DNA from: Candidatus Hodarchaeaceae archaeon
GTDB taxonomy: Archaea > Hadarchaeota > Hadarchaeia > Hadarchaeales > Hadarchaeaceae
Length of the DNA stretch: 64,000 bases
Assembly (NCBI GenBank): GCA_030018135.1
Contig: JASEGJ010000001.1
Coordinates: forward strand, 74,991-138,990
Direction: 5' to 3'
Shown: one piece after another, positions 28,780 through 59,308 of the stretch
How the letters are laid out: every line of letters starts with the position of its first letter
Position numbering within the stretch: position 1 is the first letter of the stretch
Position numbers and translations under genes: made by a program
Notes under the pieces: model-generated
Databases searched by the model: none
What the model was told of the DNA's origin: nothing
The model's input: only the letters and a program-made list of their open reading frames with translations

Positions 28780-30208
28780 TTACTCAGATGGATTCTCGCC
28801 CTGCTCCATCAACTGTATGTATGGCTTCAACTTCCTCTCCATCAGCCTGATTATAAAGCCCTTTATCAGAAATCCCTGCAGGGGGTTCTTTCTGAAGTGG
28901 TCGCGCGCGAGCTCGGTGACCCACCTGAAATCGTGCTTCATGCACGCCGCGAGCAACATCCAGTGCTCCGGCAGCATGTCCTTCGCCCTAAAAAATCTCT
29001 CCCCTTGCATGGTCCCTATGGGGACAAAAAACAGCGGGACGATCAGGGATTTATATTCCCTGAGGCTTTCCACTAGCTCTATGGTTTCGACTACATCACT
29101 TGCTGTTTCGTCGGGAAACCCCATGATGAGCGTTGAACACGGGACCCAGTGGTTCTCCCTTAGCAATTTATGGGCTTCCAGCACGAGTTCCGGCCATTCC
29201 TGAGGCCTGAAGGGCGCCGCCTTGCCCCGCATGTATTTTTCCGCAATCCTCCGGGATCCCGTCTCTATCCCAACCTGCCCCGAGACCCAAGGTTTCTGCT
29301 TCGAGCCGAGATTCAGCAGCTCGGAGAGGTCCCTTATTAGGTTCGGTTTTGCCATCGCGGAGGCAAAGGCGAAGTGGGAAAAGCTAACATCCTTCTCCAG
29401 CCTTGAGACTCCCGCGAACAATTTTCAGCACCTTCCTTTCATCGGGGATCGCACCCCTAGCCCCATACCTCAGAACATCCTCGGCATGCAGCAATACGCC
29501 GAGTCCAGCAGCGACGTTTACTTTTACTTCTTCCAATATCCTCTCGATCGGCCTACACCTGAAGTTCAATAGCGTCGGGTTGCAGAATTTACAGCCCCTC
29601 CCGCAACCCCTAGCGATCTCGACGAGGCCGTTGATCGTCGGATTCCTTATTGATGGGATTTGGTCCAGGGGAACGACTTCCCCTTGGACGATCCTCGGAA
29701 GCTCGTCGCCGTTTAATGCTTTTTCGAAAACCTTAACCGCGGTTATCTCGCCCTCCCCCACGACGACGCAATCGATGTCAAATTTCGCGATTATCCTCTC
29801 GTCTGCCAGTTGCCAAGCTCCGGGTCCTCCCACAATGACCTTTAATTTATTTTTTCTGATCACCGGATCCGTAATCAACTTCCTGAAATAAATCGCGGAG
29901 TATGTCTCCCTCCCCGTTAAATCGGCGAAAGTGGTGGATGCGGGGCCTAGCCCGAGAGGGTCATTCGTCGTAATGCCAATGGCCTTCGTTTTCCCGTTTA
30001 TGACTTTATCAAGGTGCTCGGGATGCGCGACGGCAACGTCAAAGTCCTTCTCCAATAAGGCTGCCTCTATCTTTCTGGTCCCGGTCGGTGCGCAGGTCGC
30101 CTCCCCATTTTTTTTGAGGAATTGGCGGGCTGAATATGAGCTTGTAAACCCACCCGGGCACGATTTTTGGGGAACAAGCGGCGAAGCCCAAGAACTCGCT
30201 CCCGCCAT
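28780..30208 (-). pseudogene. B12-binding-domain radical SAM protein disrupted by a frameshift (two overlapping ORFs 29384-30208 and 28780-29421)
   Basis: upstream ORF has B12-binding domain + CGRGCKFC (Cx3Cx2C) and stops about 60 aa later; downstream ORF in another frame carries the rest of the radical SAM barrel (GIETGS, IMGFPDET). Confidence 0.55.
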
Positions 30209-33338: not shown

Positions 33339-33461
33339 TGGTGGGGTCGCTGGGATTCGAACCCAGGTCCCTGGCTTTTTTGCCCGACCTTGTCCCATTT
33401 GGCAGACCATTGAGAACTTGATCTTAAGCCAGAAGGATAGGCCAAGCTACCCCACGACCCC
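33339..33461 (-). tRNA. tRNA gene with about 45-nt insertion (intron) in anticodon region and encoded CCA; isotype unresolved
   Basis: acceptor GGGGTCG/CGACCCC + A + CCA, D-loop AGCTTGGCCT, T-arm CTGGG-TTCGAAT-CCCAG, anticodon stem CTGGC...GCCAG separated by about 52 nt; no canonical anticodon loop could be assembled by hand. Confidence 0.5.
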
Positions 33462-34817: not shown

Positions 34818-34925
34818 TGGAGCCCCGGGTGGGCTTTGAACCCACGACCTACTGATCGCTTGCCGCCTGGTTACAAGTTTCGACAGCTCACCTTCAGTCG
34901 CTCTACCAGGCTGAGCTACCGGGGC
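34818..34925 (-). tRNA. tRNA gene with about 31-nt insertion in anticodon loop region, encoded CCA; isotype unresolved
   Basis: acceptor GCCCCGG/CCGGGGC + T + CCA, D-arm GCTC-AGCCTGGTA-GAGC, anticodon stem ACTGA...TCAGT, variable AGGTC, T-arm GTGGG-TTCAAAG-CCCAC. Confidence 0.55.
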
Positions 34926-37094: not shown

Positions 37095-37213
37095 TGCCGG
37101 GGGCGGGACTCGAACCCGCGATCTCAGGATTTCTCACATCATGGTTGATCAGCACTCACAGCCAGTGGTTTGGGCTATGAGTCCTGCGCTTTAACCAGCT
37201 AAGCTACCCCGGC
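37095..37213 (-). tRNA. tRNA-Met(CAT) elongator-type with 46-nt intron at canonical 37/38
   Basis: acceptor GCCGGGG/CCCCGGC, D-arm GCTT-AGCTGGTTA-AAGC, anticodon stem CAGGA/TCCTG, exon loop CTCATA|…|A gives CUCAUAA; intron 3' TGAG pairs with C32-A35 and leaves an AAA bulge (BHB-like). Confidence 0.8.
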
Positions 37214-40534: not shown

Positions 40535-41397
40535 AGGTTGTCGACGTTATGAGCTCGCCCGTGGTTGCGATAGGGTCTACGGGGCCAATAGCACATGCAA
40601 AGAACCTGATGTTGCGCCACGACATAAAACGTCTTGTTGTGGTCGAGCGAGGGGGCCCGGTCGGAATAGTTTCAATGAGCGATCTCGCGGAGCGCCTTGA
40701 CAGCGGAACCTCAGCTTGGCGACGACGCCCCATCGATCGCATTCCGATCGCGCGGGTGATGAGCAAAAACTTGATTACGGTGTCACCAGGCACCGATTTG
40801 AGCGAGGCCGCCAGGTTGCTGCTGAAGCACGGCATTAGTAGCTTGGTAATAACCGAGGGCAAAAAACTTATCGGTATCCTGACAAAGACGGATTTGGCGC
40901 GCTTCTTCGCTAAAAATTTGAGAGGTCGAGCGATGGTTCGAGAGCTGATGAGCACAAGTGTAATAACCGTGAACCGTCGACACTCGCTCGCTCACGTCGT
41001 CGAACTCATGGAAAGAAATAACGTGGGTCGTGTGGTGGTCGTGGATGGCGCTAAGCCGATAGGCACAGTGACTGCAAGCGATGTAGCATTCGCGCAGCTC
41101 GAAAGACCAGTCGAGGGCATAGCTCGACGCGAACTCAAATTCACGAGAAAACCTGCGCGAGCCGATAGGCCAAAATATAGATACGTGAAGTATGTCGCCC
41201 TGCTTACCGCTGAGGATATGATGAGGTCTGAGCTGCTCACCGTCGAAGCGGGCGAAGATGCCGCAATGGCGGCTGAGCGAATGCTCAAGTATGGGAAAAG
41301 CGGTCTGCCGGTCGTCGAGCGTGGCGAGTTGGTGGGCATCCTGACGAAGACCGACTTCACTAAAGGAATCGCGAGGCTTGGACGAAATGCGCGTTAG
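40531..41397 (+). CDS. CBS-domain protein (four CBS repeats)
   Basis: CBS signatures; 4-nt overlap with upstream paralog. Confidence 0.7.
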   Translation: MKVVDVMSSPVVAIGSTGPIAHAKNLMLRHDIKRLVVVERGGPVGIVSMSDLAERLDSGTSAWRRRPIDRIPIARVMSKNLITVSPGTDLSEAARLLLKHGISSLVITEGKKLIGILTKTDLARFFAKNLRGRAMVRELMSTSVITVNRRHSLAHVVELMERNNVGRVVVVDGAKPIGTVTASDVAFAQLERPVEGIARRELKFTRKPARADRPKYRYVKYVALLTAEDMMRSELLTVEAGEDAAMAAERMLKYGKSGLPVVERGELVGILTKTDFTKGIARLGRNAR

Positions 41398-42950: not shown

Positions 42951-43047
42951 GCGGCCGTGGTCCAGCCTGGTTAGGGCGTTAAGCGCCGCCAAAGGACCCA
43001 GGCTCCCCAAGCCTGTGGCGCGGGTTCGAATCCCGCCGGCCGCACCA
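42951..43047 (+). tRNA. tRNA gene with about 20-nt insertion near the D-arm/anticodon-stem junction, encoded CCA; probable Gly(CCC)
   Basis: acceptor GCGGCCG/CGGCCGC + A + CCA; D-stem GTCC with two candidate 3' partners (GGGC before, GGAC after the insertion); anticodon arm CAGGC-TCCCCAA-GCCTG (C at position 33); T-arm GCGGG-TTCGAAT-CCCGC. Confidence 0.55.
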
Positions 43048-44990: not shown

Positions 44991-45413
44991 ATGGAACTGC
45001 GGTGCGATATCGTGGGCATCGAGACCTTACCAGTGACATTGTTGCTCGGCACGATAATCGGCGCTTGTGCGCTCGGGCTCGGGGCCAGATGCCTAACCAA
45101 CTTGCAAAGCCTGACGGAGAAACAGCGAGCGACCGAGAGCTTTGATGCCCTTGTGGAGCGGGCAACGGCAGTCGGCATGGGCGGTGCTGGTGGCAGGCAG
45201 CGGGTCGAACTTGACCTGCCCAACAGCAAGATAGTCTGCCGCGGAAGGCTCCTACAGCTTGTTTTGGACGATGAGATACGAAGGAGCAAAATCATGCCCC
45301 TGCCGATCCTCGTCGATGGCAACGATGCATGGGAAATCAATACCGGGTACTACGAGATCGAACTCCGCCGAGATAATTTTGGCAATTGTCTCCTAAAGCT
45401 GCGGAGGCTTTGA
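44991..45413 (+). CDS. pilin-like protein (N-terminal hydrophobic helix)
   Basis: MELRCDIVG/IETLPVTLLLGTIIGACALGLGA. Confidence 0.4.
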   Translation: MELRCDIVGIETLPVTLLLGTIIGACALGLGARCLTNLQSLTEKQRATESFDALVERATAVGMGGAGGRQRVELDLPNSKIVCRGRLLQLVLDDEIRRSKIMPLPILVDGNDAWEINTGYYEIELRRDNFGNCLLKLRRL

Positions 45414-45841
45414 CGATGAACCAGCATGGATTGCTCATGGATTTTCTATTTTGCAAGATCGGCGTGGCGCTCGCGGCGATATCGTTGATCGGCGCTTCCA
45501 TGGCAATGTCATCAAGCTTTCAACGCGAGACAGGACGGGATGAGCTAGCGGCGGTGGGAGATACTATTGCACGCGCAATTTTTGCGGCTGATGCCATGCC
45601 CGGCGAGGTGCAACTTGTGCGCGAACTTCCACCCCTTCGACAACAGTTTAGGATTACAATCGTTGGCGCTCGCAGCGACGGCATGCAAGTTGTCCACGTA
45701 CTCGTGGACGGTCGAAGTCAGGATAGACGCGTAATAATGGTGGGGAACAAGGTCAACGGCGGCGAGTTTGAGTTCAGCTACAGCAACCCCTCGATTGTTA
45801 TGGTGAGCAAAAATGAGCAAATTTTCTTGGGGTTGGTCTAA
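45386..45841 (+). CDS. pilin-like protein (N-terminal hydrophobic helix)
   Basis: …NQHG/LLMDFLFCKIGVALAAISLIGASMA; overlaps upstream gene end. Confidence 0.4.
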   Translation: MSPKAAEALTMNQHGLLMDFLFCKIGVALAAISLIGASMAMSSSFQRETGRDELAAVGDTIARAIFAADAMPGEVQLVRELPPLRQQFRITIVGARSDGMQVVHVLVDGRSQDRRVIMVGNKVNGGEFEFSYSNPSIVMVSKNEQIFLGLV

Positions 45842-46294
45842 TTGGATCAACTTTCGGTTGGCGAGGACCTTTTCGCGACGCTCATCGTTGCCAGCCTAGC
45901 AGTACTGTTCGTTGCGGCGCTAGTGCACTCCTACCATGTGTACGCTGAGCGAAAAAATGCCCAAGAGGGCTTAAGCCTAGCGCTCGACATCGCGAACCAG
46001 CTTAAAAATGAAGTCTTAGCCAAGCACGAGAACTATGTATGCCCCGGACTCATCAACCTAAAGACATTCGACAAGGAACTTTCAAGATACCACCAACTGC
46101 TCTTTAAACAGGGGATAAAGCTACGCGTCGAGGTTAGAAAGCTAGACGGTGAGCTCGCCCTAGCTTATGGCGCCAAAGCCAGCCAGCTCGGTCGATATTT
46201 CTCGCCCCCATGCTCCGTGAGCCTTCCTGTCACCATTGCCGAAACGCCCGCATCCCGCTCGCTCGGTGAGCTGATAGTGTGGGTTTGGAGGTAG
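45842..46294 (+). CDS. pilin-like protein (N-terminal hydrophobic helix)
   Basis: MDQLSVG/EDLFATLIVASLAVLFVAALV. Confidence 0.4.
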   Translation: MDQLSVGEDLFATLIVASLAVLFVAALVHSYHVYAERKNAQEGLSLALDIANQLKNEVLAKHENYVCPGLINLKTFDKELSRYHQLLFKQGIKLRVEVRKLDGELALAYGAKASQLGRYFSPPCSVSLPVTIAETPASRSLGELIVWVWR

Positions 46295-46298
46295 CAAA

Positions 46299-46958
46299 AT
46301 GGACAGACGCGGTCAAGGGCATGTGGTCGACATGTTGGTTTTTGCGTTGATGGTAACTCTCGCGTGCTCGCTCTTAGTTAAGGCAAGCCCGGTTGAGTCT
46401 CGGGCGATAAACGATCGCTACGCCGCCAACCTCGCACAAAGTATATTGTTGACGCTTCAAAACGCGACTGCGGACGAGTTCGGGGGCCTTGAATATTCGC
46501 TTGATCTTCGGACGGCTTGGGGGCCTAGCGAGCGCAAGTTAAAACACAAAACACTGGCACAGCTGTTGGTTGAGGATGCGCTTTGCAACCTGCGCGCAGA
46601 GATCAACGGTCGTGAAGTCGCGGGGCTTAGGTCGAGCCAAGATCTAGACAATAAAGTCCACAAGTTCTTGACTGACGTACTAAGCAAGCTGATCGGCGGG
46701 CGTTTTGACTACAGCTTGACGGCGAGGGCGGAATCCTTAAAAATCTCGTCAACTGTTCGAGTTTATTTTGAGACCTCGATCAAAAGCTTGAGCGGCGAGG
46801 AGCAGCGGCAGCAAATTTGTTCAGAAACGATCGCGATGAGTTTGCCCATCCCCAAGCAGGAGTTAGTTGTGCGCCTCCTGAGCATAAATCCGATCGAGCT
46901 CTTTCAACTTGAGCCGGAAATTGCCGTTGAAATAACTCTCAGCTTGTGGTCGAGATGA
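46299..46958 (+). CDS. pilin-like protein with canonical class-III signal (RRG/Q)
   Basis: MDRRGQGHVVDMLVFALMVTLACSLLV: KR-G-Q followed by hydrophobic stretch, the archetypal prepilin peptidase (PibD/FlaK) substrate pattern. Confidence 0.5.
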   Translation: MDRRGQGHVVDMLVFALMVTLACSLLVKASPVESRAINDRYAANLAQSILLTLQNATADEFGGLEYSLDLRTAWGPSERKLKHKTLAQLLVEDALCNLRAEINGREVAGLRSSQDLDNKVHKFLTDVLSKLIGGRFDYSLTARAESLKISSTVRVYFETSIKSLSGEEQRQQICSETIAMSLPIPKQELVVRLLSINPIELFQLEPEIAVEITLSLWSR

Positions 46959-48214
46959 TGGAAAAGCACGGCTTCATGCCGTTCAGCGCAGCGGGTTTTC
47001 TCATTGTGATGCTAGTTGTCGCGATGATCGGGCGTGCGGCGTGGTCGCAACATCATCAAACCATGAACGCGATCGATGACATCAACAGCATGTCGCTTTT
47101 AACCGTTACCGCGGGCGTTCAAAACGATCTTCGACATGTGGCGCGCTACGCGGTTTACAGGGCGCTCTGGCAGGTCTGCAAGCATGCTGATGACTACAAA
47201 AACGATGAGGCGCGTGTACAAGCGATTGAAAAGCTTGCAGCTGAGTACTTCCTCAAACATGCCGAAGGGCTACCGCAGGCCTACATTAGTGCGCGCGTCA
47301 GGCTTGAGCTTCCCGACGGCCAGCCATCCTTTAATCTGCGGCAGGCAGAAAACGGATATGTGCTCGCCAGGGTTGAATTGCCCGGGCAGGCACGCATAGG
47401 GATCAGTTCCCTCGACAACGGTACCAAGCTCACGCTTTCCTGCACTGGTTTCGAGGTTTGGGTTGATTGCCGCTATTTCCTGTTGCAGGAACGCATGCGC
47501 AAGTTTGTCGATGATATCGATGAAGTTTGCTCAAGTTGGATGCGCGCCGAGTATGCTGCGGCCTGGGGACAGGCGTTGATGGGCCAGGTTTGGCTAAACG
47601 ACAAACGCAGCAGGGCCCTTTTCGAGCTGGCTTGGAAGAATCACGAGCTTAATACCTTTGGGTCGGCCGACTATCTTGAAATGCCCACATCGGCGGAGTT
47701 TAACATGAGCGCACCTTCGGACATCAACTTTAACTCAAACATTGATATCGCGCCGGTGAGCGTTGCCGACGCACAAAGGATAGAGGGCCATATCGACCGC
47801 GCCCTCGCAGCCCTTCGCCGTGCGGAGGTGGGGTTGAAAAATGCCGAGGGATCGATCGAGGTGGCGCTCGACATCGTTCGAAAAAATTCCATTCTGTCAG
47901 AAAACTTGGATGCCAAAAGCGCCATGCTCGGCAACGTGAAAAAGGAGCTAAACAAGGCCATTGAAACGCTAGAAAAGGCTGGGAGCGACGTTCGAGAAGT
48001 TGGCATGGAGTTTGAGCAACTCGTCGCATTCGTAAAAGGTAAGGCCGAGGGTAACCTGTTGATGAAATTGCTCTATCGTGGCTTGACCTCCTCCGACGGC
48101 AACTACCCGCCGCTGGCGCAACGCGTCTCTTTGGGCCTTGCGGGGGTTGAGGACAAATTAATGGGACTGTCGGTGGCAAATGAACAATATGCAGAAGCTC
48201 AGCGCATCGGATAA
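46946..48214 (+). CDS. large (422 aa) pilin-like / pilus-associated protein with class-III-like N-terminus and C-terminal coiled coil
   Basis: …EKHG/FMPFSAAGFLIVMLVVAMIG then about 390 aa soluble region ending in heptad-rich segment. Confidence 0.4.
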   Translation: MVEMMEKHGFMPFSAAGFLIVMLVVAMIGRAAWSQHHQTMNAIDDINSMSLLTVTAGVQNDLRHVARYAVYRALWQVCKHADDYKNDEARVQAIEKLAAEYFLKHAEGLPQAYISARVRLELPDGQPSFNLRQAENGYVLARVELPGQARIGISSLDNGTKLTLSCTGFEVWVDCRYFLLQERMRKFVDDIDEVCSSWMRAEYAAAWGQALMGQVWLNDKRSRALFELAWKNHELNTFGSADYLEMPTSAEFNMSAPSDINFNSNIDIAPVSVADAQRIEGHIDRALAALRRAEVGLKNAEGSIEVALDIVRKNSILSENLDAKSAMLGNVKKELNKAIETLEKAGSDVREVGMEFEQLVAFVKGKAEGNLLMKLLYRGLTSSDGNYPPLAQRVSLGLAGVEDKLMGLSVANEQYAEAQRIG

Positions 48215-48986
48215 CTTGGGCTCGCTCGAAGACCACCTCGTCGAGCTTCACGAGGACGTCAAATTTCAAGTGTGGAGCTTGCTGGTCTCGCCCTCGCCAA
48301 AATACTGCGAGGAATATCAAGAATACCCTGACCCAGAAGTTTACAACTATGAAAGGGATGGTCCATCGTCGATCGTCCGAAGCGCCAATGTTTACATCCT
48401 CAGCGAGCCGGATGGTACGATAAGCGCATTAAGAGCAACCTTGTTGGATACAAGGAACAATTTGGAAAAAGTGGAAAGCGTAGCTAAAAACCTCGAACGA
48501 AAGCAAGAGGACTTTAAAGGCGCAGAGATAAGCGAGGAGTTAAGACAATCCCCCGTGGGTTCAGACCCAAGGTTCCTCGATGGGCTCGACCGCGAGTGGG
48601 TGTACGAAACCATACCGCCGCCCCCGATTCGAAAACAACCCGGGCTTTCGGTGTTTCATGATTTTAGCATCAAAGAAGTAAGATACGAAAGAAGGGACCC
48701 GCTGGGTTGGCTCGATGCGGGCGCGCCACCGACGCCGATACCCCTTTGGTTTATAGGCGTGACCCTGTACTGGGCACAGTGGGAGGTTACGCTCGAGCTA
48801 GAGGACAAGCCTGTCGAGGAGATATTTGACTTCGAAAATCCAGTGCTGCCCAGGTCGCTGCTTGAAGGGTCCAACGGTTTAACAATCGTTCATAAGCCGT
48901 TGGGGTACCGCTTTGAGGTGCCCCGCGAGCGGTTCAGCTTTACCTTGTTGATCGTCAGCCCGACGCCATTTGAAATCGATGCCTAA
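48180..48986 (+). CDS. hypothetical soluble protein, last gene of pilin-like operon
   Basis: 268 aa, no N-terminal TM; overlaps upstream gene by 35 nt. Confidence 0.35.
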   Translation: MNNMQKLSASDNLGSLEDHLVELHEDVKFQVWSLLVSPSPKYCEEYQEYPDPEVYNYERDGPSSIVRSANVYILSEPDGTISALRATLLDTRNNLEKVESVAKNLERKQEDFKGAEISEELRQSPVGSDPRFLDGLDREWVYETIPPPPIRKQPGLSVFHDFSIKEVRYERRDPLGWLDAGAPPTPIPLWFIGVTLYWAQWEVTLELEDKPVEEIFDFENPVLPRSLLEGSNGLTIVHKPLGYRFEVPRERFSFTLLIVSPTPFEIDA

Positions 48987-49536: not shown

Positions 49537-50055
49537 ATGATTAAGTTTGATAACATAACGGTCAGGATCAAACGCGGAGATCTAACTAAGGAAAGGGTCG
49601 ATGCCATCTGTAACCCCGCAAACAGCCTGATGTTGATGGGCGGGGGTGCAGCGGGCGCGATAAAGCGGGCAGGAGGCAAGGGAATAGAGGAGGAGGCATT
49701 GAAGCACGCGCCAGTTTCCATTGGAAAGGCGGTCGCGACTGCCGCTGGCAGGCTCAGGGCACGATGGGTAATCCATGCGCCCACGATGGCCAAGCCAGCG
49801 ATGCGCACTTCGAGCGAAAGCGTCTACCTCGCCACCAAAGCCGCGCTCGAGTGCGCCGAAAAAATGGGAGCTAAAAATTTCGCCATCCCCGGTATGGAGA
49901 CGGGGATAGGTGGGGTCTCATTCGATGCCGCTGCTGGCGCGATGGTCAAAGCGCTCAGGGATTTCGGCCCAATATCGAGGTCGCTGAAGGAAATCGTTTT
50001 ATGCGATTTGAGCGAGGAGATGGTCGGCGCTTGGGCGAGGGAGTTGACCAAATGA
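49537..50055 (+). CDS. macro-domain protein (ADP-ribose binding / O-acetyl-ADP-ribose deacetylase family)
   Basis: GDLTKERVDAICNPANSLMLMGGGAAGAI macro-domain signature; start at MIKFDNITV. Confidence 0.8.
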   Translation: MIKFDNITVRIKRGDLTKERVDAICNPANSLMLMGGGAAGAIKRAGGKGIEEEALKHAPVSIGKAVATAAGRLRARWVIHAPTMAKPAMRTSSESVYLATKAALECAEKMGAKNFAIPGMETGIGGVSFDAAAGAMVKALRDFGPISRSLKEIVLCDLSEEMVGAWARELTK

Positions 50056-50972
50056 TAAAGCTTCAGGGTTTAACCCGCAAGTTTAACGGGCTCGTCGCGG
50101 TCGATGGCTTGACGTTCGAAGTTGGGGAGGGAGAGATCTTCGGCCTGCTGGGCCCCAATGGTGCTGGCAAGACCACGACGGTTCGGATGCTGTGCTGCCT
50201 CATCAAGCCGACCGGGGGTAAAGCGTTCGTCGGTGGGTACGAGGTAGGCAAGGACGCGCTAAGGGTGAGGGAAATCGTCGGCCTGCTCCCCGAGGCGCCC
50301 GGGCTCTACGGCGAGCTAAGCGCGTACCGAAACCTAGAATTCTATGCCAAGCTTTACGGCGTACCCAAGCGGAGGCGCGAGGAAAATATTGAACGATTTC
50401 TGAAAATGCTCGGCCTTTGGGGGCGGAGGGACGACCCCGTTGCGACGTTTTCTAGGGGAATGCAGCAGAAGCTCGCGATCGTGCGGGCGATGGTCCACGA
50501 GCCCAAGGTCCTCTTCCTCGACGAACCGACCGCGGCCCTCGCACCCGAGTCCGCCAAGACCGTGCGCGATTTCATCCTGGAGCTTAAGCAGGAGCGGCGG
50601 ACGATCTTCCTCTGCACCCACAACCTCCACGAGGCTGAGCGACTTTGCGACCGCGTGGCGATTACAAACAGCAAGTTAATAGCGATTGGCTCGCCGAGCG
50701 AACTCGAGCAGAAGTTCGGCCCGAGCAGGACCGAAATCCGCCTCGAGCGGGTGAGCAGAAAAATAGTGGATGCGGTCAGAAGGCTAAAGCACGTGAAGGG
50801 CGTCGAGGTGGTCGGGGACAAGCTAATGGTCGAGGTTGAGGACCCAGAGGCTGCAAACCCGGTGATAGTCGAGGCCGTAGTCAAGCATGGCGGAAGGGTG
50901 CGTTACGTGGCGCGCGCCGTCCATGCGCTCGAGGAAACCTACTTGAGGTTGGTGAGGGAAAGTGAGGCCTGA
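50055..50972 (+). CDS. ABC transporter ATP-binding protein (ABC-2 type exporter)
   Basis: GPNGAGKTT Walker A, ABC signature FSRGMQQKL, Walker B FLDEPT. Confidence 0.8.
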   Translation: MKLQGLTRKFNGLVAVDGLTFEVGEGEIFGLLGPNGAGKTTTVRMLCCLIKPTGGKAFVGGYEVGKDALRVREIVGLLPEAPGLYGELSAYRNLEFYAKLYGVPKRRREENIERFLKMLGLWGRRDDPVATFSRGMQQKLAIVRAMVHEPKVLFLDEPTAALAPESAKTVRDFILELKQERRTIFLCTHNLHEAERLCDRVAITNSKLIAIGSPSELEQKFGPSRTEIRLERVSRKIVDAVRRLKHVKGVEVVGDKLMVEVEDPEAANPVIVEAVVKHGGRVRYVARAVHALEETYLRLVRESEA

Positions 50973-51744
50973 TAGGGTTTGGGAAATCGCGCGCAAGGAC
51001 ATGGCGAGCGTTAGAAGGCATAAGTACGTGCTCTACGGGCTTATAGGCATACCTTTAATTTTCGCTATATTTATCCCGATGGCCTCGATTTATCCGGTCG
51101 TGACTAGCGAGGAACCCTTGGATAACAAGCTGCCACCCTTTGCCCAGCCCGGGATGGCGCCGAAGCAGGCGGTGGTGACGGGATTGGCCAACATGGCCGT
51201 GCTCATGTTCATGTTTCTGCCTGCTGCAATCCCTTCGACGATAGCATCCTACACCTTCGTCGGCGAGAAGGTGAATCGGCAGCTCGAGCCATTGCTCGCG
51301 ACCCCCACGACAGATCTCGAACTCCTGATCGGCAAGGGGTTGGGCGCGTTTGTGCCCGCGATGGCCGCGACCTTCGCGTCATTTGCGGGTTTGGTGGCGA
51401 TCGTCGACGTGCTCACCTTCCCGCTATTTGGTTACCTCTTGCTGCCCAACCTGATTTCAGCGGTCGTCCTGCTGGTTTACGCCCCGCTGGTGTGCCTTCT
51501 GTCGGTCTCCTGGAGCATTTTCATCTCATCAAAAGTAAGCGATGTTAGGGCGGCAATGCAGTTGGGGATAGTGGGGATCGCCCCGGTTCTATTGTTCTAC
51601 TTCCTGTTCATGGGCGGGATTGTTTCGCTTGAGTGGATGACGCTCGTGGCCTTCGGGCTGGTGCTGGCCTCCGCAAGCGCTGGTTTATTCGCCCTGAGCA
51701 AGGCGACTTTTCAGAGGGAGGAGATTTTGACCAAGTGGAGGTGA
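50962..51744 (+). CDS. ABC-2 type transporter permease
   Basis: six hydrophobic helices; overlaps ATPase gene stop. Confidence 0.65.
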   Translation: MRPDRVWEIARKDMASVRRHKYVLYGLIGIPLIFAIFIPMASIYPVVTSEEPLDNKLPPFAQPGMAPKQAVVTGLANMAVLMFMFLPAAIPSTIASYTFVGEKVNRQLEPLLATPTTDLELLIGKGLGAFVPAMAATFASFAGLVAIVDVLTFPLFGYLLLPNLISAVVLLVYAPLVCLLSVSWSIFISSKVSDVRAAMQLGIVGIAPVLLFYFLFMGGIVSLEWMTLVAFGLVLASASAGLFALSKATFQREEILTKWR

Positions 51745-52896: not shown

Positions 52897-53820
52897 GTGG
52901 GAGATGGTGAGGGTGGGATGCTAGGCGAACTCCAACGGCAAGCATTTGAAACTAAGGTGAGACGAGATCCCACTTTTTGGGCCTGCTACCCCCATCCGCA
53001 CTTCCCTACGCTTTCCATCACCGGCGACACCTGTGCTTTACGATGTAAGCAATGCGGCCGCCGCTACCTGCAACACATGTTCGCTTGTCCGACACCAGAT
53101 GTCTTACGTGAGACATGCCTTGAGTTAGCTTCAAATGGCGCCCGAGGGGTCTTGATCAGCGGTGGCTACAACGACGAGGGGTACGTGCCATTTGAACCCT
53201 TCCTCGATTCGATCGCAAGCATAAAACGCGAAACCGGGCTCTTCTTGAACGTTCACACTGGTTTGATGCCCGCTTGGCTTGCGCGAGAACTCGGTCATGT
53301 TGGCGTCGATATGGCGAGCATCGATGTGGTGGGCAGTGATGAAACTATAAAACTCGTGCTCGGCCTAGATCGAACGACGCAAGACTACGAGCGGGCGCTA
53401 ACGACCCTCCGCTCGGCCATCCCCCACGTAGTGCCGCACATTTGCATCGGCTTGCACGCGGGCAAACTCAGGGGCGAACGAGCGGCGCTTGAATTTGTCG
53501 CGAAGATCAACCCACGGGCACTGGTCATGCTCGTGCTCGTGCCCACGCCCGGCACCGAGTTTGAACATGTCACCGGGCCGAGTCCAGCGGAGGTTGGCAA
53601 ACTCATCACTGAGGCTCGACTCAAGTTCCCTAGCGCAGTGCTGGCGCTGGGTTGTATGCGGCCGCGCGATGCTGGGCGAGCCGAGCTTCAGGCCTTACGC
53701 TCAGGCGTCGACAGGGTGGAGATCCCAGGTAAGCGAACCATCGAGGCCGCGCGCGAACTCGGGCTTAGGGTGCGGAGGCTTGACGCGTGTTGTGCGGTGC
53801 CTTGGGATGAGGAGGTTTGA
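52897..53820 (+). CDS. radical SAM protein, candidate LipS1/LipS2-type lipoyl synthase subunit
   Basis: CALRCKQC Cx3Cx2C motif; between lplA and gcvH; adjacent to second radical SAM. Confidence 0.55.
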   Translation: MGDGEGGMLGELQRQAFETKVRRDPTFWACYPHPHFPTLSITGDTCALRCKQCGRRYLQHMFACPTPDVLRETCLELASNGARGVLISGGYNDEGYVPFEPFLDSIASIKRETGLFLNVHTGLMPAWLARELGHVGVDMASIDVVGSDETIKLVLGLDRTTQDYERALTTLRSAIPHVVPHICIGLHAGKLRGERAALEFVAKINPRALVMLVLVPTPGTEFEHVTGPSPAEVGKLITEARLKFPSAVLALGCMRPRDAGRAELQALRSGVDRVEIPGKRTIEAARELGLRVRRLDACCAVPWDEEV

Positions 53821-54797
53821 GATTGGTTGACCAAGTTAGGATTGCGTTCGGCACGGGCATCGTGCTTGGACTCTGGCGGGGGCAGCTCGCCGTAGCCCCA
53901 ACGACCGCGCACCTTTTGACGTATTATGAAGGCAGATGCAACGCAAACTGCAAATTCTGCCCACAAGCCAAAGGGAGCAGGGCGGACTTAAGGATGCTCT
54001 CCCGCGTAGTCTGGCCGAGGTGCGAGTTCGAGCGGGTAATAGCTGCGCTCCGGAGAAACGGCGGCAAGTTCCATAGGCTGTGTGTTCAAGCGGTAAACCA
54101 CCCAAATGTCATCGACGATATTTGCGAGATAGTCACAAGGGTGAAGGAAGCTTGCCGACTGCCAATCTCAGTTTCGTGCCAGCCCCTGAAAAGGCCCGAC
54201 ATCGAAAAACTCGCCAGCTCAGGAGCCGAGAGAATCAGCATAGCCCTAGATGCCGCGACGCCCGAGATCTTCGACCGCATCAAGGGTTCGGCGGCAGGGG
54301 GGCCCTACAGGTGGCATGAACACCTCCGGGCGCTGGACGACGCCAAGAGAGTATTTGGGGACAGGGTCTCCACTCATTTGATCGTTGGACTCGGCGAGAC
54401 TGAACAGGAAATGATAGAGGCCATCCAATTTTTACACGACCGCGGCATTACCATTGGATTATTTGCGTTCAAGCCCATCCCAAACACGCCCTTGGCCGGG
54501 CGGGCCCAACCAGACGTATTGAGCTACCGCAGGATTCAACTCGCTCAATACTTGATAAAGCAGGACCTAACGGATGTCAAGCATATGCGCTTTAACAATG
54601 GGCTGGTGGTGGATTTCGGGGTGAACCCGGCGACATTGCAAGAGGTTGTAGATTCCCGGGTGCCGTTTATGACATCCGGCTGTCCGAACTGCAATCGCCC
54701 GTTTTATAACGAATCTCCCCTAGGGCCAATGTACAACTACCCCAGAAGGCCAACCCCGTCCGAGATGGCAACCATTAGGGTTCAGCTGGGCTTGTGA
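53817..54797 (+). CDS. radical SAM protein (BioB/LipA-like fold), candidate second LipS subunit
   Basis: CNANCKFC Cx3Cx2C motif, 4-nt overlap with upstream radical SAM gene, C-terminal extra Cys (CPNC). Confidence 0.55.
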   Translation: MRLVDQVRIAFGTGIVLGLWRGQLAVAPTTAHLLTYYEGRCNANCKFCPQAKGSRADLRMLSRVVWPRCEFERVIAALRRNGGKFHRLCVQAVNHPNVIDDICEIVTRVKEACRLPISVSCQPLKRPDIEKLASSGAERISIALDAATPEIFDRIKGSAAGGPYRWHEHLRALDDAKRVFGDRVSTHLIVGLGETEQEMIEAIQFLHDRGITIGLFAFKPIPNTPLAGRAQPDVLSYRRIQLAQYLIKQDLTDVKHMRFNNGLVVDFGVNPATLQEVVDSRVPFMTSGCPNCNRPFYNESPLGPMYNYPRRPTPSEMATIRVQLGL

Positions 54798-54855: not shown

Positions 54856-55281
54856 ATGAAAGTCGGTGGTTATGAAGTCCCCGAGGACCTTTACTACAGC
54901 AGGGAACATGAGTGGGTCAGGGTAGAGGGGAAACTCGCACGCGTCGGCGTCACGGACTACGCGCAGAAGCGACTCGGCGATGTCGTCTACGTTGAGCTGC
55001 CAGAGGTGGGCAGGCGGGTTGAGCAAGCGAGTGAAACAAAGAGCAAGGCAATGGAGCTCGGCGCGTTGGAGTCGATTAAAGCGGTGGTCGCGATCTACGC
55101 ACCGTTGAGCGGCGTGGTCGAGGATGTCAACCAAGCGCTTCGGGATAGGCCTGAACTCGTCAACACCGACCCCTACGGCGAGGGCTGGGTGTGCCTAGTT
55201 GAAGCGAGTAACCTCGAAACGGAACTCAAAAATCTGATGAGCGCAAGTGCCTACGCCGAGTTCTTGAAGGGCTTGAAATAG
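54856..55281 (+). CDS. gcvH: glycine cleavage system H protein
   Basis: lipoyl-lysine motif ESIKAV, about 140 aa. Confidence 0.9.
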   Translation: MKVGGYEVPEDLYYSREHEWVRVEGKLARVGVTDYAQKRLGDVVYVELPEVGRRVEQASETKSKAMELGALESIKAVVAIYAPLSGVVEDVNQALRDRPELVNTDPYGEGWVCLVEASNLETELKNLMSASAYAEFLKGLK

Positions 55282-55293
55282 CTCGGTGGTAAC

Positions 55294-56682
55294 GTGGGCC
55301 ACCCATACGTCTCAAACGATGCGAGGACGAGAGAGCAGATGCTTCACGAGATAGGAGTGACAAACATCGATGGCCTGTTCGCTGATGTGCCGAGTGAAAT
55401 TAGGCTGAAACGCCCACTCAATTTGCCCGGCCCGATGTCGGAGTTGGAAACTAGGCGCCATGTGCAAGCGATGCTCGCAAAAAATAAGCCATTCACGCAG
55501 ATGCTATCATTTCTGGGCGGCGGGGTCTGGCCCCATCACGTACCTGCCCACGTTCGCTCGCTCGCGCAGCGCTCGGAGTTTCTGACGGCATATACCCCAT
55601 ATCAACCCGAGATAAGCCAAGGCATGCTCCAAGCGCTTTTCGAGTACCAAAGCATGATTTGCGAACTCACCGGTATGGAGGTGGCAAACGCATCCATGTA
55701 CGACTGGGCGACCTCACTAGGCGAGGCCGCACTTATGTGCGCCAGAGTTACGGGCAGGCGGAAATTTATCGTGCCTGAGCTGATCGGCCCGGAGCGGTTT
55801 GCAACGCTACAAAATTATGCTTTGGGCCCAGCTCTTGAGCTCGTAAAAGTCGGCTACGACCGCCGCACCGGTCAGCTTGACCCATCAAAGCTACGCGCGG
55901 AGCTCGGGCGGGACGTGGCGGGGGTCTACATCGAGAACCCAAGTTATCTGGGTTTTTTGGAGACGCAGGTTGATGAAATAGCCGCCGCAGCGCATGAGGT
56001 TGGAGCACTTTTCGTCGTCGGCGTTAATCCGATTTCGCTGGGGTTGCTCAAGGCGCCGGGCGAATACGGCGCGGACATCGTCATAGGCGAAGGGCAGCCG
56101 CTCGGCAATCCAGTTAGCTTCGGCGGGCCGCTCTTGGGTATCTTCGCTTGTCGGGATGACCAAAAGCTGGTGAGGCAAATGCCGGGGAGGATAATAGGGA
56201 TGACTACGACGCTCGACGGCAAAACGGTGGGCTTTGTCATGGTACTGCAGACGAGGGAGCAGCACATCCGCCGCGAGCGGGCAACTTCCAACATATGCTC
56301 GAACGAGGCCCTGTGCGCAATCAATGTCGCGATTTATTTGGCATCGCTTGGACCAAGGGGGCTCCGCGAACTTGGGGAGATCTGCGCCGCGAATGCTAGC
56401 TATGCCATCGAAAAGCTCAATAAAATAGATGGTTTGTTGGTACCTATTTTCGATTCGCCCCATTTCAACGAGTTCACGCTCAATTGCGATCGCTCCAATT
56501 TATCCATTTCCAGCCTAAACGCCAAGCTGCTCGAGCGTGGCATCCAAGGCGGCAAGCCCATTCGCGAGGAGTTTCCTGAACTCGGTGAAACATCCCTGAT
56601 GTGCACCACGGAGCTGCATTCGGGGGTGGACATCGACCGCCTAGCCGAGGCACTCACAGATGTGGTGAGGGCGAAATCGTGA
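55294..56682 (+). CDS. gcvPA: glycine dehydrogenase (decarboxylating) subunit 1
   Basis: 462 aa N-terminal P-protein half. Confidence 0.9.
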   Translation: MGHPYVSNDARTREQMLHEIGVTNIDGLFADVPSEIRLKRPLNLPGPMSELETRRHVQAMLAKNKPFTQMLSFLGGGVWPHHVPAHVRSLAQRSEFLTAYTPYQPEISQGMLQALFEYQSMICELTGMEVANASMYDWATSLGEAALMCARVTGRRKFIVPELIGPERFATLQNYALGPALELVKVGYDRRTGQLDPSKLRAELGRDVAGVYIENPSYLGFLETQVDEIAAAAHEVGALFVVGVNPISLGLLKAPGEYGADIVIGEGQPLGNPVSFGGPLLGIFACRDDQKLVRQMPGRIIGMTTTLDGKTVGFVMVLQTREQHIRRERATSNICSNEALCAINVAIYLASLGPRGLRELGEICAANASYAIEKLNKIDGLLVPIFDSPHFNEFTLNCDRSNLSISSLNAKLLERGIQGGKPIREEFPELGETSLMCTTELHSGVDIDRLAEALTDVVRAKS

Positions 56683-58193
56683 GCGATTGGTACAGACAGG
56701 CTCGGTGGGATCGAGAGGGGCGCCTAGAACCGCTCGTCTTCGAACTCGGCGGGCCAGGGCACATCGGGTACTCGTTACCTAAACCGCCCGAACATACAAA
56801 TTTGCCCAAACATCTTCTGCGGACCGAACTGCGGCTGCCCGAGCTTTCGGAGGTCGAGGTCGTCAGGCATTACACCCGCCTATCGCAGATGAACTATTGC
56901 GTCGACCTGGGCACATATCCGCTGGGTTCGTGCACCATGAAGTACAACCCGAAGCTATGCGAGGAGCTAGCCTCGCTGGAGACGGCAACTTGCATCCATC
57001 CTTATCAAGCTGAGGGGACTGTGCAGGGGGCACTCGAACTCATGTACAAGCTCGAGCGTTGTCTGGCGGAAATAGCCGGCGTGGCGCGCGTCTGTTTGCA
57101 CCCCTCCGCCGGCGCGCACGGCGAATTCGTGAGCATGCTGATCACCCGAGCGTATCACGAATTCAACGGTGAACAGGACGAGCGCACCCAAGTCATAGTG
57201 CCCGATTCGGCCCACGGCACGAACCCGGCGAGTGCGGCGATGGCGGGCTACGAAGTTCTCATCGTGCCATCGGATGCTCGAGGGCGCGTCGACCTCAGGG
57301 CCTTAGAGGCAGCTGTTTCTGAGCGGACGGCGGCAATGATGCTGACAAATCCTAACACCCTCGGCCTATTCGAGGACAGGGTCGTGGATATCGTCGAACT
57401 CGTCCACGATGTGGGGGGACTGCTTTTTTACGATGGCGCCAATCTGAACGGTATACTCGGCAAGTCCCGCGCAGGGGACATGGGGTTCGACATCGTGCAC
57501 TTCAACCTGCATAAAACCTTCGCCACGCCGCACGGCGGCGGCGGCCCGGGCGCGGGACCGGTGGGCGTGACGCAAGAGCTGGAGAAATTCCTGCCGGTGC
57601 CGGTCGTCGAATACGATGAAAAAAGAGGCGAGTATTATCTGGACTATGATCGACCAAATTCAGTGGGCAAGGTCAGGGCATTTTACGGCAATTTTGGCGT
57701 GCTGGTAAAGGCCTACGCATACATCCTGATGATGGGTGCCCGCGGCCTGGAGGAGGCCGCAGAGGCGGCGGTGCTCAACGCAAATTACGTCATGCGCAAG
57801 CTATCGGGCACGAGGGGATATGAGCTAAAGTTCGATGCGACTGGACCTTGCAAGCACGAGGTGGTCTTCAGCGCTGAGCCCCTGAAGCGCGAGACTGGTA
57901 TCGGTGCACGCGAGGTAGCAAAGCGATTGCTTGATTATGGCATGCATGCCCCCACCTATTACTTTCCGCCCATAGTCAGCGAGGCGCTGATGATCGAACC
58001 CACCGAGAGTGAGTCGAGGGATGAAATAGACCGCCTTATCAACGCTCTAAAGGCAATAGCCGTCGAAGCTAGCACGGACCCCGAAAAGCTCCGCGCCGCG
58101 CCGACGGTCACAGCGATCGGACGATTGGATGAGGTTAAGGCATCGCGCGAACCTATTTTGAGCTGGCGGATGTACAGGAAGCATCGGGCATAG
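56679..58193 (+). CDS. gcvPB: glycine dehydrogenase (decarboxylating) subunit 2
   Basis: PLP-lysine region HFNLHKTFATPHGGGGPG; GTG start overlapping gcvPA stop (GTGA); conserved N-terminus VSDWYRQ…EPLVFELG. Confidence 0.9.
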   Translation: MSDWYRQARWDREGRLEPLVFELGGPGHIGYSLPKPPEHTNLPKHLLRTELRLPELSEVEVVRHYTRLSQMNYCVDLGTYPLGSCTMKYNPKLCEELASLETATCIHPYQAEGTVQGALELMYKLERCLAEIAGVARVCLHPSAGAHGEFVSMLITRAYHEFNGEQDERTQVIVPDSAHGTNPASAAMAGYEVLIVPSDARGRVDLRALEAAVSERTAAMMLTNPNTLGLFEDRVVDIVELVHDVGGLLFYDGANLNGILGKSRAGDMGFDIVHFNLHKTFATPHGGGGPGAGPVGVTQELEKFLPVPVVEYDEKRGEYYLDYDRPNSVGKVRAFYGNFGVLVKAYAYILMMGARGLEEAAEAAVLNANYVMRKLSGTRGYELKFDATGPCKHEVVFSAEPLKRETGIGAREVAKRLLDYGMHAPTYYFPPIVSEALMIEPTESESRDEIDRLINALKAIAVEASTDPEKLRAAPTVTAIGRLDEVKASREPILSWRMYRKHRA

Positions 58194-58195
58194 AC

Positions 58196-59308
58196 ATGCA
58201 AAAATTGGGCCTCATCGTCAACCCAATCGCTGGAATTGGCGGGCGCGTCGGCCTCAAAGGTTCAGATGGAAAGGAGGTCATCAAGAAGGCGATGGCGCTC
58301 GGCGCCAAGCCCGTGTCGCCTCAAAGGGCGGTGGAGGCCCCAAGGGAATTGGTACCCTTAAAGGAAAAAATCCTCCTGGTAACTTACCCGCGTGAGATGG
58401 GCGAAGACGAGGCCAAGAAGGCTGGTTTCGCTCCGAAGGTGATAGGAGAGATAACCTCTGGACAGACCACGGCTGAGGACACAAAACGGGCCGCTAGGGA
58501 AATGCGAGACCTAGGTGTGGACCTTATCTTATTGGCGGGCGGAGATGGGACCGCTCGCGACGTTTATGATGCCATTGGAGTAGACATACCCGTCCTCGGC
58601 GTACCCTCCGGCGTTAAAATGCACTCAGCAGTTTTTGCGATCAACCCTTGGGCGGCCGCAAGAATAGCTATGGAGTTTTTGTGGGAAGAACTGCCGTTGA
58701 AAGAGACAGAAGTCATGGATTTAGATGAAGAAGCCTATAGGCGGGGAAGGCTGTCGGCGAAGCTCTACGGATATTTGTTAACCCCTTACGAGCCAAGTTT
58801 AATTCAAGGCGTAAAGTTTGCTAGTTCAACGACGGAAGTTGAAAGGGATGAACAAGCGGCGATAGCAAAACATGTCGTCGAAGAAATGAAGCCTAACATC
58901 GTTTACATCCTAGGCCCGGGGACGACGACGCGCGCGGTAGCTGAGGAGCTGGGCATTCGCAACTCAACATTGCTCGGCGTTGACCTCCTTGTAGACCGTA
59001 AGCTCGTGGCAGGCGATGTCAATGAACAACAAATTCTCCAAGCAATCGAGGGAAAGCCAGCGACGATCCTCGTCAGCCCCATAGGCAAGCAGGGCTTCAT
59101 CTTCGGGCGCGGCAATCAGCAACTGAGTCCCGAGGTCATCCGCCGCGTCGGGAAAGATAATATTTTGGTGCTCGCGACCCCGCAGAAGCTAGCGCTGACC
59201 CCGGTTCTAAAGGTGGACACGGGCGACGCCAAGCTCGACGACGAGCTCCGCGGATACATCCGCGCGATCACGGGCTACCGTCAGACCCGGGTGGTTAAGG
59301 TCGTCTAG
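58196..59308 (+). CDS. ATP-NAD kinase / diacylglycerol-kinase superfamily protein (COG3199-like)
   Basis: GGDGT motif (LLAGGDGTARDV), 370 aa. Confidence 0.5.
   Translation: MQKLGLIVNPIAGIGGRVGLKGSDGKEVIKKAMALGAKPVSPQRAVEAPRELVPLKEKILLVTYPREMGEDEAKKAGFAPKVIGEITSGQTTAEDTKRAAREMRDLGVDLILLAGGDGTARDVYDAIGVDIPVLGVPSGVKMHSAVFAINPWAAARIAMEFLWEELPLKETEVMDLDEEAYRRGRLSAKLYGYLLTPYEPSLIQGVKFASSTTEVERDEQAAIAKHVVEEMKPNIVYILGPGTTTRAVAEELGIRNSTLLGVDLLVDRKLVAGDVNEQQILQAIEGKPATILVSPIGKQGFIFGRGNQQLSPEVIRRVGKDNILVLATPQKLALTPVLKVDTGDAKLDDELRGYIRAITGYRQTRVVKVV

Follow-up and report, generated by a model that had tools for sequence, protein, structure and literature searches.

The stretch of DNA analysed here is a 64-kb window (64,000 nucleotides of contig JASEGJ010000001.1) from an archaeal metagenome-assembled genome (MAG), and the element under study is a gene cluster that contains two adjacent genes for radical S-adenosylmethionine (SAM) proteins. 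Their open reading frames (ORFs) are both located on the + strand. The upstream ORF (52897-53820, 307 amino acids (aa)) carries the motif CALRCKQC at residue 46 and the downstream ORF (53817-54797, 326 aa) the motif CNANCKFC at residue 41; each ORF contains a single CX3CX2C motif. Pfam and NCBIfam searches of the window ORFs agree on the gene order lplB-lplA-lipS1-lipS2-gcvH-gcvPA-gcvPB, all on one strand (Table 1). The preliminary description of this DNA had placed two neighbouring radical-SAM genes between a split lipoate ligase and the genes for GcvH, GcvPA and GcvPB, and both the pair and its neighbours were found as described.

The junctions from lplB to gcvPB measure, in order, -4, 83, 2, 58, 12 and -4 nucleotides (nt; overlaps are negative). 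The start of lplA overlaps the stop of lplB (ATGA), the GTG start of gcvPB overlaps the stop of gcvPA (GTGA) and the GTG start of lplB overlaps the stop of the preceding ABC-2 permease gene. This GTG at 51735, which yields a protein of 98 aa, is the most likely start of lplB, rather than position 51633. Shine-Dalgarno-like sequences precede lipS1, lipS2 and gcvH. The likely start of lipS1 is the ATG at 52918, located behind GGTGAGGGTG and resulting in a 300-aa protein; the GenBank record contains the 307-aa form (GTG 52897), whereas 300 aa is the length given by the other public gene call. For lipS2 the likely start is the TTG at 53823 (324 aa), 7 nt after a GGAGG sequence, on which both public gene calls agree. 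With this start lipS1 and lipS2 are 2 nt apart, with the TTG at 53817 they overlap by 4 nt. Under either start the ribosome-binding site of lipS2 lies inside the end of lipS1, and therefore the earlier characterisation of the two genes as translationally coupled is a fair one, since overlap and gap both fit it.

Table 1. Genes of the predicted lipoylation and glycine cleavage operon. Coordinates are positions in the window; the evidence column lists the matches and, where given, the source of the start.
Gene	Product	Coordinates	Strand	Evidence
lplB	Small subunit (C-terminal domain protein) of bipartite lipoate/octanoate-protein ligase, 98 aa	51735..52031	+	NF053749, Pfam Lip_prot_lig_C, 3r07_C; start from public gene call and sequence
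lplA	Predicted catalytic (large) subunit of bipartite ligase, 268 aa	52028..52834	+	Pfam LplA-B_cat; T. acidophilum LplA PDB matches
lipS1	Radical-SAM sulfur insertase, predicted to act at C6 of 8-mercaptooctanoyl-lysine, 300 aa	52918..53820	+	NF053742, TK2109
lipS2	Radical-SAM sulfur insertase, predicted to act first, at C8 of octanoyl-lysine, 324 aa	53823..54797	+	NF053743, TK2248
gcvH	Lipoyl-carrier H-protein, presumed substrate of ligase and LipS1/LipS2	54856..55281	+	TIGR00527
gcvPA	Glycine dehydrogenase (aminomethyl-transferring) subunit 1	55294..56682	+	NF001696, 601 bits (cutoff 364)
gcvPB	Glycine dehydrogenase subunit 2	56679..58193	+	NF003346, 719.6 bits (cutoff 441); start from public gene call and sequence

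NCBIfam release 20 contains curated equivalog models for LipS1 (NF053742) and LipS2 (NF053743), the two components of a lipoyl synthase. The upstream ORF matches NF053742, "LipS1 family lipoyl synthase", with 251.7 bits (cutoff 230) over model positions 5-268 of 268, and the downstream ORF matches NF053743, "LipS2 family lipoyl synthase", with 339 bits (cutoff 270) over model positions 1-292 of 292. Chance is ruled out by the family E-values (9e-75 and 2.5e-101). The assayed enzymes of this type are the Thermococcus kodakarensis proteins TK2109 (LipS1) and TK2248 (LipS2). Both sequences come from the supplement to Neti et al. (2022; PMC9585515); obvious errors in the extracted text were mended by comparison with the DNA printed there, and the published residue numbers were then reproduced. 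In BLASTP comparisons, the upstream protein was 38.5% identical to TK2109 over 273 columns, spanning the full length (E 2e-55; TK2248: E 4.6), and the downstream protein was 37% identical to TK2248 over 322 columns, likewise along its whole length (E 5e-74; TK2109: E at least 1.8). The pairing was reciprocal and specific, with E values above 1 for the cross pairs, and the two window proteins showed no detectable similarity to each other. The preliminary description had proposed the pair as a candidate LipS1/LipS2 synthase and had left the assignment of the two names undecided. Judged by these sequence comparisons, the ORF 52897-53820 is LipS1 and the ORF 53817-54797 is LipS2, and the names can be given with confidence. 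In GenBank the proteins are called "hypothetical protein" (LipS1, MDI6819452.1) and "radical SAM protein" (LipS2, MDI6819453.1).

The two-protein lipoyl synthase has been established by Jin et al. (2020) and Neti et al. (2022; PMC9585515). LipS2 attaches a sulfur at C8 of octanoyl-lysine and LipS1 then acts at C6, and each protein has an auxiliary [4Fe-4S] cluster (Neti et al., 2022). Mutagenesis defined the radical-SAM cysteines of the T. kodakarensis proteins as C27/C31/C34 in LipS1 and C39/C43/C46 in LipS2; ligands of the auxiliary cluster are C230, C276, C277 and probably H159 in LipS1, and C85, C276 and C279 in LipS2, and mutation of these residues, H159 included, abolished activity (Neti et al., 2022). 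In the proteins encoded here, the radical-SAM motif is C39/C43/C46 in both LipS1 (300-aa numbering) and LipS2 (324-aa numbering). The residues of the auxiliary cluster are H174, C246, C291 and C292 in LipS1 and C87, C287 and C290 in LipS2. All of the experimentally defined T. kodakarensis cluster ligands thus align to identical residues, and these positions are invariant both in 36-sequence alignments that include the T. kodakarensis proteins and in 60 database homologues per family.

The neighbouring genes encode candidate partners of this synthase. LplB scores above the cutoff of the equivalog model NF053749 (73.6 bits, cutoff 65) and matches Pfam Lip_prot_lig_C; its best sequence match in the Protein Data Bank (PDB) is subunit 2 of the Thermoplasma acidophilum LplA (3r07_C, from the LplA-LplB complex 3r07; E 2.8e-15). 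LplA matches Pfam LplA-B_cat with 178 bits (cutoff 27) and has T. acidophilum LplA as best PDB matches (2ars and 3r07_A, E 1e-29); its lysine motif KISGSA aligns with KIMGAA of 2ars. GcvH reaches 149.8 bits with TIGR00527 (cutoff 115.85), and its ESIKA sequence aligns with the lipoyl-lysine motif ESVKA of Thermotoga maritima GcvH (2ka7), which makes K75 (in ESIK) the lipoyl-lysine. Compared with 2ka7, GcvH also has a 7-residue insertion (ETKSKAM, residues ~60-66) just ahead of this motif.

To find related loci, one genome per prokaryotic species was scanned with a LipS2 alignment. This yielded 80 loci, which were annotated by tblastn with the window proteins; the genome from which the window comes lies outside these results, and the best match among them has 66% identity. 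The complete order lplB-lplA-lipS1-lipS2-gcvH-gcvPA-gcvPB is conserved in about 23 species representatives of the Hadarchaeota (Hadesarchaea), with 56-84% protein identity, and in about 20 Hadarchaeota loci gcvH directly follows lipS2. A MAG of Acetomicrobium (Synergistota) contains lplB-lplA-lipS1-lipS2 with 48-70% identity, which fits the transfer of LplAB from Hadarchaeota to Synergistota inferred by Tanabe et al. (2023; PMC10332631). In most loci of Bathyarchaeia, lipS1 is located upstream of lipS2 on the opposite strand.

It has been reported that in archaea both LipS proteins cluster with a lipoate ligase and LipS1 also with the H-protein (Neti et al., 2022). The archaeal order that is called typical is lipS2-lplA-lplB-lipS1 (Tanabe et al., 2023). 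The preliminary description had seen a match to the published archaeal arrangement; this is correct for the set of genes but not for their order, which is here that of the Hadarchaeota. In T. kodakarensis lipS1 and lipS2 are more than 130 genes apart (Neti et al., 2022), whereas in the window they are separated by 2 nt in one operon. The T. kodakarensis system otherwise resembles the one described here: TK2109 and TK2248 have the CX3CX2C motif and all auxiliary-cluster ligands in common with the window proteins, neither has the LipA signatures CX4CX5C or RSSY, and a split LplA/LplB-type ligase and GcvH are the partners. Compared with TK2109, LipS1 of the window has a longer N-terminus, and its C-terminus extends 8 residues beyond the CC pair.

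The MAG from which the window's contig (142 kb) comes carries the name "Candidatus Hodarchaeaceae archaeon" and is placed by NCBI in the Asgard archaea. RpoB of the window is 87% identical to that of Hadesarchaea DG-33-1, 70-80% to that of other Hadarchaeum/Hadesarchaea and 72% to that of MSBL1, but only about 63% identical to Asgard, Thermococcus and methanogen sequences. Identical LipS proteins are also present in a MAG labelled Hadesarchaea, and Hodarchaeum genomes contain LipA and lack LipS1/S2 according to the table of Tanabe et al. (2023). The label Hodarchaeaceae (Asgard) is rejected by RpoB and by the multi-gene (ten-gene) synteny. By these sequence criteria the organism is a member of the Hadarchaeota, and the NCBI label is probably a mix-up of the names Hadarchaeaceae and Hodarchaeaceae.

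Altogether, the locus is very probably a Hadarchaeota operon in which genes for de novo protein lipoylation are combined with those for their client, the H- and P-proteins of glycine cleavage; the system is a known one. The sequences show that the ORFs are intact, that their products belong to these families and retain the cluster ligands, and that the gene order is conserved. What the enzymes do, in which order they add the two sulfurs, where the octanoate comes from and which electron donor is used are inferred from homology to characterised systems. LplA and LplB together would activate free octanoate (or scavenged lipoate) with ATP and transfer it to the lysine of the ESIK motif of GcvH. 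LipS2 would then cleave SAM at the [4Fe-4S] cluster bound by its CX3CX2C motif, abstract a hydrogen from C8 of the octanoyl group and attach at this position a sulfur from its auxiliary [4Fe-4S] cluster (C87, C287 and C290). The resulting 8-mercaptooctanoyl-GcvH would be taken over by LipS1, which is predicted to insert the second sulfur at C6 from its own auxiliary cluster (C246, C291, C292 and probably H174), and lipoyl-GcvH would finally serve GcvPA/PB.

Several observations weigh against this assignment or against parts of it. The enzymes that have been assayed are those of T. kodakarensis, with which the window proteins share only 37-38% identity. LplA stays below the cutoffs of the NCBIfam LplA_large "exception" model (225.9 versus 480) and of the full-length model TIGR00545 (146.7 versus 280). 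Since LplA does not reach these curated cutoffs, the case for a ligase over a LipM-like transferase activity rests mainly on the adjacent LplB, together with the PDB matches. The 83-nt space before lipS1 could contain an internal promoter. A LipT-like reductase or a ferredoxin was found neither in the cluster nor elsewhere in the 64-kb window, and genes for GcvT and for the L-protein (dihydrolipoyl dehydrogenase, lpd) are likewise absent from it.

The LipS1/LipS2 pair might serve a lipoyl carrier other than GcvH, for instance LbpA of the sHdr sulfur-oxidation system, since LipS1/S2 were first noticed in sulfur oxidisers with sHdr and LbpA (Tanabe et al., 2023). We regard this as very unlikely: the window contains neither LbpA nor sHdr genes, Hadarchaeum and B75-G9 score 0 for LbpA/sHdr and 1 for GcvH in the survey of Tanabe et al. 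(2023), and in the Hadarchaeota loci it is gcvH that directly follows lipS2. Equally improbable is an operon for lipoate salvage only, in which LplAB would do the work and the radical-SAM pair would act on an unrelated substrate or be inactive. A bipartite LplAB can use lipoate directly, and T. acidophilum has a ligase and no synthase (Tanabe et al., 2023). In the window, however, both radical-SAM ORFs are intact and full-length, cover the full family models and have kept every catalytic ligand, and the close, conserved association of these ORFs with lplAB and gcvH speaks for a common function.

The structures predicted by AlphaFold2 are confident, with pLDDT values of 92.2 for LipS1 and 89.4 for LipS2. 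The closest solved folds to both models are biotin synthases (8vdw, 8vcw and 1r30) and HydE, with TM scores of 0.55-0.71, and LipA structures rank far lower. Solved structures of LipS1 or LipS2 were found in our copy of the PDB neither by sequence nor by fold; only BioB and HydE match. The ranking of the fold search agrees with the view in the literature that the LipS1/LipS2 family is BioB-like and not LipA-like. BioB (1r30; type II 8vdw and 8vcw) also inserts sulfur at the terminal carbon first, but BioB and HydE share only 14-22% identity with the window proteins and differ from them in auxiliary-cluster ligands and substrate. That both proteins are themselves biotin synthases of the BioB type, as the older automatic annotation "biotin synthase-related radical SAM", the JGI name "biotin synthase" of some homologues and the closest solved sequences and folds might suggest, is the least credible of the alternatives and effectively refuted, because the model TIGR00433 (bioB) gives 30.6 bits for the lipS1 ORF and 62 bits for the lipS2 ORF (cutoff 225) while the LipS1 and LipS2 models pass, because the pair is flanked by a lipoate ligase and GcvH and the surroundings contain no bio genes, and because the T. 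kodakarensis proteins annotated as biotin synthase make lipoyl and not biotin (Neti et al., 2022).

LipA was rejected as identity for either ORF: both lack the N-terminal CX4CX5C and the C-terminal RSSY, and TIGR00510 gave 17.2 bits on lipS2 (cutoff 310) and no match on lipS1. The preliminary description had considered a grouping of the pair with BioB or other radical-SAM families; all rival radical-SAM models score far below their cutoffs, the bioB and lipA models reaching 17-62 bits against cutoffs of 225-310. Its statement that a LipA-type gene is missing holds for the 64-kb window, in which a six-frame search for the CX4CX5C, RSSY and CX3CX2C motifs and a Pfam search of about 55 window ORFs revealed no LipA-like ORF. 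The other window ORFs with a CX3CX2C motif are also without CX4CX5C and RSSY. A fourth segment with CX3CX2C (40786-41397, - strand) runs antisense to a gene for a CBS-domain protein, and we regard it as a chance occurrence. LipA catalyses the same net reaction as LipS1/LipS2; it too belongs to the radical-SAM enzymes and sacrifices an auxiliary [4Fe-4S] cluster, but it is a single protein with CX4CX5C and RSSY and adds sulfur at C6 first.

The assignment as a LplAB-LipS1/S2 lipoylation operon places the locus among systems that have already been catalogued. The distribution of the pathway across GTDB has been mapped by Tanabe et al. (2023; PMC10332631), whose tables S3 and S4 list LipA in 0 Hadarchaeota genomes. 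Hadarchaeum and B75-G9 are positive there for LipS1, LipS2, Lpl and GcvH, and have no LipA, LipB, LipM, LipT, LbpA, sHdr or dihydrolipoyl dehydrogenase. The latter is 0 in the rows of Hadarchaeum, B75-G9, DG-33 and WYZ-LMO6. An E2 protein is called in one of the Hadarchaeum and B75-G9 genomes, that of H. yellowstonense. At the level of the lineage, these tables support an absence of lipA and lipB. The presence of GcvH without dihydrolipoyl dehydrogenase in the surveyed Hadarchaeota hints at a non-canonical recycling of the lipoyl group; a literature search on Hadesarchaea and glycine cleavage found nothing specific.

The cluster of Candidatus Hadarchaeum yellowstonense (LQMQ01000002), which is part of the dataset of Tanabe et al. 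(2023), resembles the one described here in gene content and order and belongs to the same lineage by RpoB. The bacterial sLpl(AB)-LipS1/S2 pathway (Hyphomicrobium denitrificans, Thioalkalivibrio; Tanabe et al., 2023) follows the same logic, with a ligase for loading octanoate or lipoate and a pair of radical-SAM proteins for inserting the two sulfurs. It differs by its fused Lpl(AB), which often occurs with LipT and serves LbpA/sHdr, whereas the window has a split ligase, no LipT and GcvH as client. The locus thus represents a system that has been described before and is already known from this lineage. With it, the published distribution of LplAB-LipS1/S2 grows by one Hadarchaeota lineage; the understanding of lipoate biosynthesis stays unchanged. 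The DG-33 genomes score 0 for all lipoate genes in the table of Tanabe et al. (2023), and the window may fill this gap for the DG-33 lineage. The operon can be read as a complete route from octanoate to lipoyl-GcvH, and its practical value is in annotation.

Two further units flank the operon. Directly upstream of lplB is a pair of genes for an ABC-2 type transporter (ATPase, then permease; 50001-51744, + strand). The pair is also found upstream of lplB in six relatives (L002, L012, L014, L016, L021 and L024, in L024 with a gap), and it is absent from L008, L017, L020 and the Acetomicrobium locus L019. On the other side, 2 nt after the gcvPB stop, starts a gene for a NAD-kinase-like protein of 370 aa with N- and C-terminal NAD_kinase domains (58196-59308, + strand), which has no NCBIfam equivalog and no PDB sequence match. 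The four closest Hadarchaeota loci (L004, L022, L023 and L038) have a gene of this type after gcvPB; L013, L014, L016 and L021 extend past gcvPB, and no such gene was found behind it there. In L013 and L021, which were both read, convergent genes follow gcvPB; the Hadarchaeum loci that were read differ in this from the window and the four closest loci. The NAD-kinase-like protein presumably resembles COG3199/AcoX. AcoX sits in operons of acetoin dehydrogenase, another lipoate-dependent enzyme. Literature searched under the name AcoX gave no link, only papers on the unrelated mammalian ACOX. As accessory parts that have so far been overlooked, the ABC-2 pair and the NAD-kinase-like protein might belong to the lipoylation and glycine-decarboxylase module, for example in octanoate or lipoate transport or in a regulatory or redox-support role, but we consider this unlikely. 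If true, such a role would matter most where GcvH is the only surveyed lipoyl protein (apart from the E2 call in H. yellowstonense) and dihydrolipoyl dehydrogenase is missing.

Elsewhere in the window, a gene for a B12-binding radical SAM protein, which is unrelated to lipoylation, appears split into two overlapping ORFs (28780-30208, - strand). The ORF 29384-30208 (- strand) shows a weak B12-binding match below the cutoff and the motif CGRGCKFC, and the ORF 28780-29421 (- strand) corresponds to the C-terminal part of the Radical_SAM model, with a score slightly under the cutoff. The pattern suggests a frameshift near 29400, either in a pseudogene or caused by an assembly error. Four over-long tRNA matches of 94-120 nt are present at 33342-33461, 34821-34925, 37095-37213 and 42951-43044. 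Rfam detected all four; ARAGORN missed three of them and reported the fourth without identity. They are probably intron-containing archaeal tRNAs. Between 38236 and 42181 (+ strand) five consecutive genes encode proteins that consist almost entirely of CBS domains, with 2-4 CBS repeats each. Five further ORFs on the same strand at 45386-48986 (+ strand) have no Pfam match and in some cases a hydrophobic N-terminus; this block may be an operon for a pilus or another surface structure.

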